Shown: positions 20,835 through 23,527, numbered from the stretch's first letter. The stretch is DNA of 36,356 bases from Candidatus Nealsonbacteria bacterium CG23_combo_of_CG06-09_8_20_14_all_40_13 (GCA_002771215.1 PCRM01000034.1:1-36356), one strand, 5' to 3'. Notes: generated by a model not told the origin, from the sequence alone. Program-made: numbers and translations.

Positions 20835-21260
20835 TTACTTTTTAGGTAAACTCCTCGACTGCGCTCGGGGCAGGTATTTTTCAAAACGTTGTCTTTGATT
20901 GAAATCTTGTTTTTCTTTTTTAAAGTTAAAAATCAGATATTTCAAAATGAAAATCAGCCAAACGATAAAAACTAAAAACAAAATCTCAAAAAGGAAACGC
21001 ATGGACAAATAGGGAATTGCCTGCCAGTGAAAAAAGGTCAGCGCCAGACCAAATCCGCCTGTCCATAAAAGCAAGCTAAAAATTGAAGATTTTAATTTTT
21101 CAAGGTAAGGTTTTCCTTGGGTTTTTAAAAAAATTGCGACCGTTACGGCTGACAATACCATCGCAGAAAAAATTATAACTGAATACCAAAAAAAAGTAAA
21201 TGTTTGCGGCTGATAATTGAAAATAAAACTGGGCTGAATAAGCTTTTTAAAATCTATCAT
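20835..21260 (-). CDS. Three-TM membrane protein, hypothetical
   Basis: Three hydrophobic segments, IPYLSMRF and EKYLP motifs; REP inserted near the C-terminus. Confidence 0.8.
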   Translation of the reverse strand: MIDFKKLIQPSFIFNYQPQTFTFFWYSVIIFSAMVLSAVTVAIFLKTQGKPYLEKLKSSIFSLLLWTGGFGLALTFFHWQAIPYLSMRFLFEILFLVFIVWLIFILKYLIFNFKKEKQDFNQRQRFEKYLPRAQSRSLPKK

Positions 21261-21316
21261 TTTTATCTAATGACTAGTGACTGTTGACTAATTGACCCGG
21301 CGCGAAGCGCCGAAGG

Positions 21317-21643
21317 TGCCTAGGGTCAGAATCGAACTGACGACACCATGATTTTCCAATTAATCGTTTCTTCTCTCAATATAAACTTAGTTTACACCGA
21401 GTAAAACGAGGTGGACTATCTCATCTCCGACGTAACGTCGGAGTTGGGCGCTAATATAAGATTATTGTTGGGACTCACTTATTAGTCTCTACACCTTCTC
21501 TGATACCACAGCCCATCAGAGCTTGGCTCGGGATTGTTCGACATTTTGTCGAAGTTTCCCCGAATTCACCCAATTTTCATCCCCGCCTTGCGACGGGACG
21601 GACCGAAAACCAGTCATGTGCTCTACCACTGAGCTACCTAGGC
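21317..21643 (-). tRNA. tRNA-Phe(GAA), split by an intron (exons 21643-21612 and 21356-21317)
   Basis: Spliced: GCCTAGG TA GCTCAGTGGTAGAGC A CATGA CT|GAA AA TCATG GTGTC GTCAG TTCGATT CTGAC CCTAGGC A. Confidence 0.93.
21357..21611 (-). ncRNA. Group I intron (255 nt, ORF-less) inserted after U33
   Basis: Exon ends in U and intron ends in G; IGS TTTTC-GGTC pairs with the 5' exon GACT (U.G wobble) and the 3' exon GAAAA; P AATTCGGGAAAC, Q AATCCCGAGC, R GTAGAGACTA, S GAGATAGTCC; P3 TTGGGTG/CGCCCAA. Confidence 0.93.
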
Positions 21644-21646
21644 ATA

Positions 21647-22327
21647 TTATATTTTTAAAGATAAACCCTTAATCCAACCTTTTAATTTTCTCATCGATTC
21701 TACTTTTTTTATATATATATGTAATGTTCCATATAGTAAAGTGTTATGTTTTCTTTTTTTCTTACTTGATTTACTTATAACAATCTGTGGTCTATAAAAT
21801 TGTTGTTTTTTAGCTTTAAGAATTTTTGCCCAAAATTTTTGCGTTTTTTCTTTTTCAATATTTGGATGTAAATGAATTCGGAATTTGAAAACAGAATTAT
21901 CTATTTTACAAATTTCTATGAAGAACCTCATAATTAACTGAATTATTTTAGGATCTGAATTGCTAAATCTTACAGCACTTTTTTCTTTTTTACCACCTTC
22001 TGCCCAAAATAATCCTAAACCTATCCAAAATAATCTCTCCTTATTTAATTTCGGAATTTCTTTCGCATAACTATTAATTAATTTATTATGTTCAACTTTT
22101 AAAATTTGCGATCTTTTTTTGTTAAAATTCGTAATATTTCTTGCCCAAATAATTTTGGTTTTTAAAATGTTCCGTTTTTTAATAACTCTTGATAAAGGAT
22201 AATTTTTGAACCAAGTTGACAATGTACTCTTCGGAATATTTAAAAGTGTATTTATTTGATTATAACTTTTTCCTTCTTTCCTTAAAAACCAAGCTTGTTT
22301 TCTTTTATTCGAACTGACAATACTCAT
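21647..22327 (-). CDS. HTH plus LAGLIDADG-like putative homing endonuclease, free-standing
   Basis: N-terminal LRKEGKSYNQI..IPKSTLSTW HTH; GLFWAEGGK motif followed by VRFSNSDP; markedly more AT-rich than neighbours. Confidence 0.7.
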   Translation of the reverse strand: MSIVSSNKRKQAWFLRKEGKSYNQINTLLNIPKSTLSTWFKNYPLSRVIKKRNILKTKIIWARNITNFNKKRSQILKVEHNKLINSYAKEIPKLNKERLFWIGLGLFWAEGGKKEKSAVRFSNSDPKIIQLIMRFFIEICKIDNSVFKFRIHLHPNIEKEKTQKFWAKILKAKKQQFYRPQIVISKSSKKKRKHNTLLYGTLHIYIKKVESMRKLKGWIKGLSLKI

Positions 22328-22336
22328 CTTGTTTTA

Positions 22337-22365
22337 ATTATCTCATTGGTTCATATTATTGTCAA
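22337..22365 (-). promoter_or_regulatory. Promoter of the endonuclease-like gene (nearly leaderless mRNA)
   Basis: TTGACA-17-GATAAT, about 10 bp before ATG 22327. Confidence 0.55.
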
Positions 22366-22374
22366 AGTTCAGTA

Positions 22375-22449
22375 TGGTGGGCGACGTAGGAGTCGAACCT
22401 ACAACCTACTGGATGTAAACCAGTCGCTCTGCCATTGAGCCAGTCGCCC
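22375..22449 (-). tRNA. tRNA-Val(TAC)
   Basis: GGGCGAC acceptor, ACTGG-TT TAC AT-CCAGT anticodon arm, GGTTCGACTCC, CCA. Confidence 0.96.
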
Positions 22450-22690
22450 TTAACGCCGCTTTATCAATACTTTAACACCTTCAGCTAAATTTTTCAATCC
22501 AAAAGTTTAAAGATAACCCACGATCGTAGCGAAAATTGAATCTAAACTAAAAAAATATCAAATTCCCAGGTTTAAATTTTCACATAAATCGGACGATCGT
22601 CTAAATTATAGGAAAATCTTAGTAAAAGTAAAGTTTAGCGATTTCTAAGAAACTACCACTGGCTTAGTACTGGTGATAGTTTCTTTTAAT

Positions 22691-22743
22691 AAAAAAGCCC
22701 CAAGTGGTGGAGGTGACTTATATGAAGTCTCACCACTTGGGGC
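22691..22743 (-). terminator. Intrinsic terminator of the candidate large RNA
   Basis: GCCCCAAGTGGTG...CACCACTTGGGGC 13-bp stem followed by TTTTTT on the minus strand. Confidence 0.8.
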
Positions 22744-23392
22744 GGCGCCAGAGAAGGTGCAAGGAAAAGTTTGGCCTGGGAAGGGAGAGAGTTTTTAGCA
22801 ATTTTTCGAGAAAGGCGGCTCGGCGGAGGGGGTTCCCCTACTTAACCGGCTTGTCACTTGTGTTTCCACCAGCGTCGACAACCGGTGGCAAGATAGCCTT
22901 TCTGCCGGATTTATCTCCCATGCGTTTAGTGCATAGGCCGGTTCGCGCCATCTGCCCTACTTCCGACAAAAGAGACAGAACCTTCTTACCGACCCTTACC
23001 CAGGCCAAGAAACGCGGGATTGATGAAGTGCAAAAGAAAGGGGGCAGATCGTTTCCAGTCGCGACGTGCGTGATGGGTCTCATCTCCGCATAGAAACGAC
23101 CTTGGTCGGCTTTCGCCACAAACAGAGCCGTTACTTGGGTTATCCCATTGTGGCTTCCCTCTGTCTGCAGCTCCAGCTATAGCCCGTCTTTCTCTACAAA
23201 CGCAAATCACCAATCCCGAAAAATTTGAGAAAGGGGGGAGAAGCGGCTAATTCGGTCACGTGAGACAAACCGTCCCGCAGGGCAATTGCAGGTCAAATTG
23301 ACCCGCGCCCTGGTGACTATAGCTTCTGTACCATCCCCCTTTCTCAAGTTACCATTAGATAAGTTAATGTTCATCAAACTTTTCAGTTTGAC
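22691..23392 (-). ncRNA. Candidate ~700-nt highly structured RNA of unknown family
   Basis: Perfect promoter, terminator, elevated GC, several 12-15 bp long-range helices with G.U wobbles favouring the minus strand, no convincing RBS-led ORF. Confidence 0.6.
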
Positions 23393-23398
23393 AAAATG

Positions 23399-23427
23399 AT
23401 TATAGTATATACTTTAATTTTTGTCAA
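23399..23427 (-). promoter_or_regulatory. Perfect consensus sigma70 promoter
   Basis: TTGACA (23427-23422)-17-TATAAT (23404-23399). Confidence 0.85.
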
Positions 23428-23527
23428 GGTTTTTAGACAAATTTAAAAGTTTCATGCTAAAATTAACCTATAATAATCAAATGCAAAATCTGCAGCAAAC
23501 GAGATTCATTACCAAAAAAGCTATTTT

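Follow-up and report, generated by a model that had tools for sequence, protein, structure and literature searches.

The window analysed here, a 36,356-nt stretch of DNA from Candidatus Nealsonbacteria bacterium CG23_combo_of_CG06-09_8_20_14_all_40_13 (PCRM01000034.1, GCA_002771215.1) whose positions serve as coordinates throughout where no other contig or locus is named, carries a free-standing gene for a helix-turn-helix (HTH) and LAGLIDADG-like protein directly 5' of a tRNA-Phe gene that is split by a group I intron lacking an open reading frame (ORF). The gene is mobile, as judged from its patchy distribution, its decayed copies and its presence or absence among relatives, and it is tRNA-linked and LAGLIDADG-like; its lineage is tied to tRNA-Phe, and its subclade is always found with the intron. 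The explanation that we favour, while rating it a little short of an even chance, is that a free-standing homing endonuclease gene and a passenger intron lying 32 bp away would move as one cassette.

Organisation of the locus

The ORF, encoding 226 amino acids (AA), occupies 21647..22327 (stop included) on the minus strand, which also carries the two tRNA genes, the promoter-like site and the intron described below. Its TAA stop (21649-21647) is followed by 3 nt and then by G1 of tRNA-Phe at 21643. Across 21700-22299, within the ORF, the G+C content is 0.225-0.26, compared to 0.34-0.49 in the flanking genes. Upstream, tRNA-Val(TAC) (22375..22449), identified by ARAGORN and scoring 70.4 bits against the Rfam tRNA model, has its CCA end 47 nt before the ORF start. 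Directly upstream of the ATG lies a promoter-like TTGACA-17-GATAAT with a TG element (22337..22365), a consensus match only (11/12), which is the best of 15 sigma-70-like sites in 21100-22700, against a mean of 5.4 sites after shuffling.

The split tRNA-Phe(GAA) gene extends over 21315..21643. It consists of a 32-nt 5' exon (21612..21643) whose last base is U33, a 255-nt intron (21357..21611) inserted in the anticodon loop between U33 and G34, and a 3' exon (21315..21356) in which CC is encoded, the exons being assigned by ARAGORN with introns allowed and by direct reading. Both default ARAGORN and a whole-window Rfam scan missed this tRNA; once introns were allowed, ARAGORN recovered tRNA-Phe(gaa) with a 255-nt intron, and the Rfam group I intron model (Intron_gpI, RF00028) matched with 50.4 bits (gathering score 50, E = 2.8e-11) only when the search was restricted to 21200-23500. 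No minus-strand ORF of 40 AA or more is present in the intron. The original prediction, made from the sequence alone, had described a very AT-rich gene with its own promoter between tRNA-Val and tRNA-Phe, stopping 3 bp before an intron-containing tRNA whose intron encodes no ORF, and all of these features are borne out, the promoter at the level of a consensus match; the range that it gave, 21357..22449, takes in the gene, the intron and tRNA-Val and omits the 3' exon at 21315-21356.

The group I core is conserved in this intron, which also has the expected U-G pair at its 5' splice site and G as its final base. P1 is formed between GACU, at the end of the 5' exon, and GGUC, in the internal guide, with U-G as the wobble pair; in 23 of 23 related tRNA-Phe introns, changes in the guide match those in the anticodon stem (GACU/GGUC, CCCU/GGGG, GGCU/GGCC or GGUU). 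By these splice-site features and the covariation of the guide, the intron looks like a working, splicing-competent ribozyme. Three further group I intron matches below threshold (27.7-43.2 bits) were observed on contig C38 (L004-L006) of the window's genome (G000); the match in L006 lies near tRNA-Ile(GAU) and tRNA-Ala(UGC), which points to the three probably being rRNA-operon introns. Group I introns with the same core are also found at L036, L039, L041, L042, L044, L045, L046 and L050, with Rfam scores of 54-82 bits where scanned; ARAGORN did not resolve their hosts as tRNAs, and these may be other genes or odd tRNAs.

Fold and motif of the protein

Searches with Pfam gave only weak matches to HTH_SB and HTH_23, below the cut-offs, and no LAGLIDADG_1, _2, _3 or WhiA model at E ≤ 1. 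NCBIfam returned no family for the 226-AA protein, phmmer no match among PDB sequences, and tblastn no match to the protein in phage records. An AlphaFold2 model (predicted local distance difference test, pLDDT, 89.1) suggested a three-helix head (residues 1-44; 22196..22327), a helix of about 40 residues (residues 47-88) and an alpha/beta domain (residues 90-226; 21650..22060). In VIA-align, the head matches the serine recombinase 2r0q_C (Z 6.8, root-mean-square deviation (rmsd) 1.9 over 44 residues) as well as the DNA-binding domains of Tn3 resolvase, Tc3 and Hin, with overall Z values of 4.8-6.8.

The C-terminal domain was also folded alone (pLDDT 91.9), and seven of its top nine VIA-align chains are LAGLIDADG domains with Z values of 5.7-7.2, namely the TliVMA intein endonuclease domain (Z 7.2, rmsd 3.2 over 82 residues), WhiA (Z 6.5), I-DmoI (Z 6.5), I-Tsp061I (Z 6.2), E-DreI (Z 6.2), the WhiA N-terminal domain (Z 5.9) and I-Vdi141I (Z 5.7). 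As every Z value lies below 8, the match to the LAGLIDADG fold, whose core runs alpha-beta-beta-alpha-beta-beta-alpha, is moderate and insufficient alone. Foldseek searches of the PDB returned nothing at E ≤ 1e-3 with either the whole model or the domain model, I-Tsp061I appearing at rank 30 with the latter. In the domain model, strands 3 and 4 are separated by an additional helix and loop.

A profile built from 24 C-terminal domains gave ten PDB matches at E ≤ 10, nine of them to I-DmoI (best E 0.0059), which is the only named nuclease that the profile matches. The family motif LYwaEGsK is aligned to GLYVAEGDK, the second motif of I-DmoI, the Glu of which we take to be catalytic. In the protein of the window this motif reads GLGLFWAEGGK (21989-22021); E110 and G111 are invariant in 41 family members, and the Glu is nearly invariant in 64. 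Each chain has a single LAGLIDADG-like domain and a single motif, and nuclease activity would accordingly require a homodimer. The protein is LAGLIDADG-like and has kept the acidic residue, in agreement with its initial description as an HTH and LAGLIDADG-like protein, while by no curated model is it a member of that family.

A large family with lineages tied to single tRNA genes

Sixty-eight homologues were found, all unnamed or labelled 'hypothetical', and the family comprises 3156 cluster representatives at E ≤ 1e-3 (1159 at 1e-10). In our first sample, 401 Patescibacteria genomes, the family profile is present in 91 (E ≤ 1e-10), with up to seven matches per genome. A protein tree was built from 92 loci, in all of which the ORF is intact. 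In 87 of these loci the stop is accompanied by a same-strand tRNA whose first base lies at -40 to +150 nt relative to it, and two of the five exceptions run off the contig end. Of these 87 ORFs, 44 extend into the tRNA and terminate there, 30 of them at tRNA positions 8-10, where the conserved U8-A9-G10 provides a TAG or TAA stop. When the downstream tRNA is mapped as a label on the tree, it changes 19 times, close to the minimum possible of 16 and far from the 59 or more changes in 200 label shuffles; therefore each lineage is tied to one tRNA gene. Clean clades (tree rows in brackets) precede Ala(GGC) (6), Trp (11), Gln (7), Met (8), Gly(UCC) (10), Gly(GCC) (9) and Ile(UAU) (12). The last of these includes a second family copy in the window's own genome (C25:4913-5539; L002:1489-2163), which ends inside tRNA-Ile(TAT) with its stop formed by tRNA positions 8-10.

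Junction positions -12 to -1 have base frequencies much like those seen at the other tRNAs of these loci, and a copy of the tRNA front upstream of the gene stood above shuffled controls, without overlap of an annotated tRNA, in one of 84 loci (L104), so that it is no family feature. L031 has a short tRNA-Gly-like stump at the ORF end.

Eight of the 87 downstream tRNAs bear an intron, namely five tRNA-Phe (including L009, labelled Trp by ARAGORN) and three tRNA-Thr. At L027 and L057 the tRNA immediately downstream of the family gene is tRNA-Thr(UGU), which a related group I intron interrupts. The nearest relatives of the two genes precede tRNA-Asn; one such tRNA-Asn, that of L030, begins with TCCGCGG, the same seven bases as the tRNA-Thr of L027. 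Furthermore, five of ten Met-clade genes (L068, L098, L113, L114 and L115) adjoin an initiator-like tRNA(CAU), mostly on the opposite strand; this tRNA is interrupted by a group I intron (about 200-240 nt) and mislabelled by ARAGORN as tRNA-Leu.

Association of the gene with the tRNA-Phe intron

An exact intron-core pattern gave 30 matches in 29 of the 401 genomes, 20 of them in tRNA-Phe and ten in other or unresolved hosts; the core pattern is therefore unspecific for tRNA-Phe. By this pattern-based count, 20 of 181 tRNA-Phe genes bear an intron. A family gene was present within about 700 bp at ten of the 20 intron-bearing places checked, compared to seven of the 150 intron-less places listed (Fisher p = 6e-7, ignoring kinship). 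All nine members of the window clade in this first sample adjoin an intron-bearing tRNA-Phe.

A second sample of metagenome contigs provided 80 loci, found by the clade's own motifs and placed on a tree together with the genome loci. All 53 resolved members of the wider clade adjoin tRNA-Phe, on either side of it. Where the gene lies 5' of tRNA-Phe, 32 bp from the intron position, 17 loci have the intron and one (L199, with an intact ORF) does not; where it lies 3', about 100 bp away, 13 have it and 20 do not; and two further loci have the gene divergent from an intron-bearing tRNA-Phe. The two sides differ (Fisher p = 1e-4) and both exceed the baseline of 20/181, with p = 1.5e-13 for the 5' side, all of these tests ignoring kinship. 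The window subclade (support 100) lies 5' of an intron-bearing tRNA-Phe at all ten readable loci and, with the genome G406 added, at 11 of 11. Its sister subclade lies 3' of an intron-less tRNA-Phe in five of five cases, and a third subclade, situated in the Phe-Gly spacer, has five loci with the intron and five without. A free-standing endonuclease-like gene is thus found adjoining a gene with an ORF-less intron, and the two co-occur above chance, more weakly on the 3' side (13 of 33). An intron tree, made for comparison with the gene tree as a guide to co-descent, was discarded as too poorly resolved, 14 of its 20 inner branches being open.

Presence, absence and decay of the gene

Patchy presence at conserved loci is accompanied by decayed copies, as is the case for free-standing homing endonuclease genes. 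In the window's class, gene and intron are both present in four of 31 genomes (G000, G029, G103 and G406), an uninterrupted tRNA-Phe in at least 17, and the intron alone was seen in none of the 31; a fifth genome of this class with gene and intron (G390) comes from the other sample. In genus g32, genomes with near-identical exons have the intron and the gene (G036), the intron without the gene (G008) or neither (G085). G408 retains only the last 32 codons of the gene, directly 5' of a tRNA-Phe without intron, the sequence of which matches the exons of the carrier G029 exactly. At this locus (L124, 720-1292) a 191-AA ORF unrelated to the family replaces the front of the decayed gene, between tRNA-Val and tRNA-Phe. 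A gene fragment with the motif lies in the Phe-Gly spacer of G293, and in G264 (C3) the copy that precedes tRNA-Phe is distributed over two reading frames. The contigs of four DNA sequencing runs contained no gene-less or intron-less form of the window locus. Joints that skip the intron did occur in these runs and were rejected, because they derive from different organisms of higher abundance, which resemble the window locus in their tRNA-Phe exons and not in their flanks.

Other features of the window

Upstream of tRNA-Val lies a G+C-rich island (22690-23330; G+C 0.52-0.55) in which no ORF is convincing. Rfam gave no match to it at E ≤ 10, and a DNA homologue was absent from 30 genomes of the same class. 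Its minus strand has a folding z of -5.5 (20 shuffles), and its end forms a long perfect hairpin with a U-run near 22692-22745; the island is a candidate structured RNA of about 600 nt. The RNase P RNA of the window's genome is located elsewhere (contig C46).

Discussion

Combining the locus structure, the protein model and the distribution of the family, it is proposed that the protein may act as a homodimer, each subunit contributing one LAGLIDADG-like domain with a tethered HTH head. Family members would insert flush against the tRNA of their lineage, so that RNase P processing of the tRNA would keep the insertion harmless. At tRNA-Phe loci without the cassette, the enzyme may cut, as the other clades would suggest, at a site spanning the 5' boundary of the tRNA, which in the carrier would be split by the gene's own insertion; repair from the carrier would then copy the gene. 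The intron would be dragged along by co-conversion and hardly be separable by recombination, because no more than 32 bp separate it from the gene. The gene would in this way form one mobile cassette of about 1 kb with the 5' exon and the intron, in what may be called trans-homing of a passenger intron, and tRNA-Phe would stay functional as the intron is predicted to splice itself out. This passenger reading accounts for an association that falls with distance (17/18 at 32 bp, 13/33 at about 100 bp and 20/181 overall), and for the 21 intact cousins beside intron-less tRNA-Phe as well as the many clades without any intron. The G+C content of about 0.25 compared to about 0.40, the gene's own promoter-like site, the occurrence in 91/401 genomes and the decayed copies support a selfish gene. 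Of the earlier claims, that of a free-standing mobile gene agrees with the patchy distribution, the decayed copies and the presence or absence among relatives. Co-occurrence of gene and intron, proposed at the time as a check, was found throughout the window subclade (11 of 11) and did not extend to 20 of 33 cousins on the 3' side or to L199.

Several points count against the passenger reading. The fold match is moderate (Z below 8), Foldseek gave nothing at E ≤ 1e-3, and no Pfam LAGLIDADG model matched at E ≤ 1. According to the tree, the Phe-linked gene has switched sides of tRNA-Phe several times while always adjoining it, which fits a target inside tRNA-Phe better than one at a single boundary, and the strict pairing in the window subclade (11/11) is also predicted by a model in which the intron confers immunity. 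The counts themselves have limits: the intron pattern missed two of 12 known tRNA-Phe introns, the exact pattern for uninterrupted tRNA-Phe found its target in only 161 of 401 genomes (150 places listed), and related genomes are not independent, so that the Fisher tests overstate significance. The steps of cutting, immunity and co-conversion are all inferred.

The immunity model amounts to true collaborative homing, in which the enzyme would cut the anticodon arm of an uninterrupted tRNA-Phe at or near positions 33/34, the intron would act as a shield, and the two would depend on each other. We regard it as rather unlikely, at about one chance in four, even though much of the distribution suits it. 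Pairing is strict at the ten readable loci of the window subclade and in G406; a second group on the 5' side is intron-bearing in six of six cases (L013, which is R013 in the tree, L183, L184, L193, L205 and L209); and the sole copy of the window subclade beside an intron-less tRNA-Phe is the 32-codon remnant of G408. Adjacency to tRNA-Phe on either side, in 53 of 53 loci, is as expected for a target inside the tRNA. LAGLIDADG homodimers cut at the centre of near-palindromes, and the anticodon arm, which at the DNA level is an inverted repeat, would suit such an enzyme. Intron-bearing tRNA-Thr downstream of the genes at L027 and L057, and the initiator-like tRNA(CAU) beside half of the Met-clade genes, point the same way. 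Against this, intact genes stand beside intron-less tRNA-Phe in 20 of the 33 cousins on the 3' side and, on the 5' side, in L199, sister lineages at the same Phe-Gly position carry either intron state (five and five), the rest of the family needs no intron, most clades abutting intron-less tRNAs, and a linkage of 32 bp alone would also yield strict pairing. Similarly doubtful is the wider proposal that the pair is a cellular counterpart of phage collaborative homing, with the intron shielding its carrier and the enzyme spreading the intron, or, more broadly, that an unannotated endonuclease family parasitises tRNA 5' ends, where the RNase P cut would replace an intron or intein as the means of avoiding harm and natural intermediates towards mobile introns would be found.

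It is more improbable still that the protein is no nuclease at all, being either a DNA-binding protein, such as a regulator of the tRNA cluster, or an inactive relic whose pairing with the intron reflects shared descent only. WhiA is a transcription factor derived from a LAGLIDADG protein, and the chains of WhiA rank high among the fold matches (8dy9_I, Z 6.5; 3hyj_D, Z 5.9; 3hyi_A, Z 5.6), consistent with this proposal, as is the lack of a Pfam LAGLIDADG match. However, the putative metal-binding Glu of the motif does not vary in 41 sequences and scarcely does in 64, all 92 tree loci have an intact ORF, and patchy spread, multiple copies per genome, low G+C content and decayed remnants characterise a selfish gene rather than a housekeeping regulator. 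Some LAGLIDADG proteins are maturases, and the gene does adjoin an intron, so the protein might help the tRNA-Phe intron to fold and splice, as the original prediction had offered as one option. The distribution lends this no support, and we consider it very improbable: 79 of 87 downstream tRNAs have no intron, 20 cousins stand beside an intron-less tRNA-Phe, ten of the 20 tRNA-Phe introns found by pattern have no family gene nearby, and the HTH head resembles the DNA-binding domains of recombinases and transposases.

The principle is known from phages, in which an ORF-less intron can be mobilised by a neighbouring free-standing endonuclease, a process termed collaborative or trans-homing (PMC3984707, PMC6083498, PMC2790892). 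A close parallel is F-CphI beside the ORF-less psbA group I intron of cyanophage S-PM2 (PMC3984707, PMC6083498), where likewise a free-standing endonuclease gene adjoins a split gene and could move together with an endonuclease-less group I intron. That pair, however, belongs to a phage, has a protein gene as host and an enzyme of the Endo VII type, whereas the present one involves a bacterial chromosome, a tRNA host and a LAGLIDADG-like protein with an HTH head; the cut site of F-CphI is the intron insertion site, while here the cut site is a matter of conjecture. T4 mobE similarly mobilises a neighbouring immobile intron, the defunct I-TevIII intron, by co-conversion (PMC2790892), but it is an HNH enzyme of a phage, and here the intron lies 32 bp from the gene, inside a tRNA. 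T4 SegB (PMC2330249) is a free-standing homing endonuclease encoded in a tRNA cluster; part of its recognition site is a conserved tRNA motif, and adjoining tRNA genes are spread along with its own. The ties of our lineages to single tRNA genes are the behaviour of free-standing homing endonuclease genes and resemble that of SegB. Unlike the family described here, SegB is a GIY-YIG phage enzyme whose T-arm motif is common to many tRNAs, whereas the present clades are specific for one tRNA and their ORFs abut or enter the tRNA 5' end.

Compared to I-DmoI, I-Tsp061I, I-CreI and similar enzymes, the protein shares a motif helix ending in Glu-Gly; its domain gives moderate fold matches to them (Z 4.0-6.5), and the profile match is to the second motif of I-DmoI (E 0.0059). 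None of those enzymes has an HTH head, and their genes lie in introns or inteins; the domain from the window differs from them by its extra helix and loop between strands 3 and 4 and escapes all Pfam LAGLIDADG models. In bacteria of the candidate phyla radiation (CPR), LAGLIDADG endonuclease genes have been reported in rRNA introns (PMC11270868), in a paper whose text does not contain the word 'tRNA'; these share the phylum and the broad enzyme class with the present family, but reside inside rRNA introns, whereas the genes described here are free-standing and tRNA-linked. Another paper briefly notes group I introns in tRNAs of CPR bacteria (PMC8172020). A full-text search of the literature, in which papers were mostly judged by title and abstract, found no description of a tRNA-linked free-standing endonuclease family in these bacteria, and the tRNA-linked chromosomal version of the phage principle is apparently undescribed.

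If the enzyme is active, the locus would be a chromosomal bacterial example of a two-part selfish cassette so far documented in phages. It belongs to a very large unannotated family, with 3156 cluster representatives and no matching curated model, which would represent a third way for a homing endonuclease gene to sit harmlessly at an essential gene, namely flush against a tRNA that is freed by RNase P. The intron-bearing and intron-less lineages on the two sides of tRNA-Phe provide a natural series in which the dependence between endonuclease and intron can be followed, and the family could supply new sequence-specific nucleases. Such genes and introns also account for the failure of default tRNA finders to detect tRNA-Phe and other tRNAs in these genomes.

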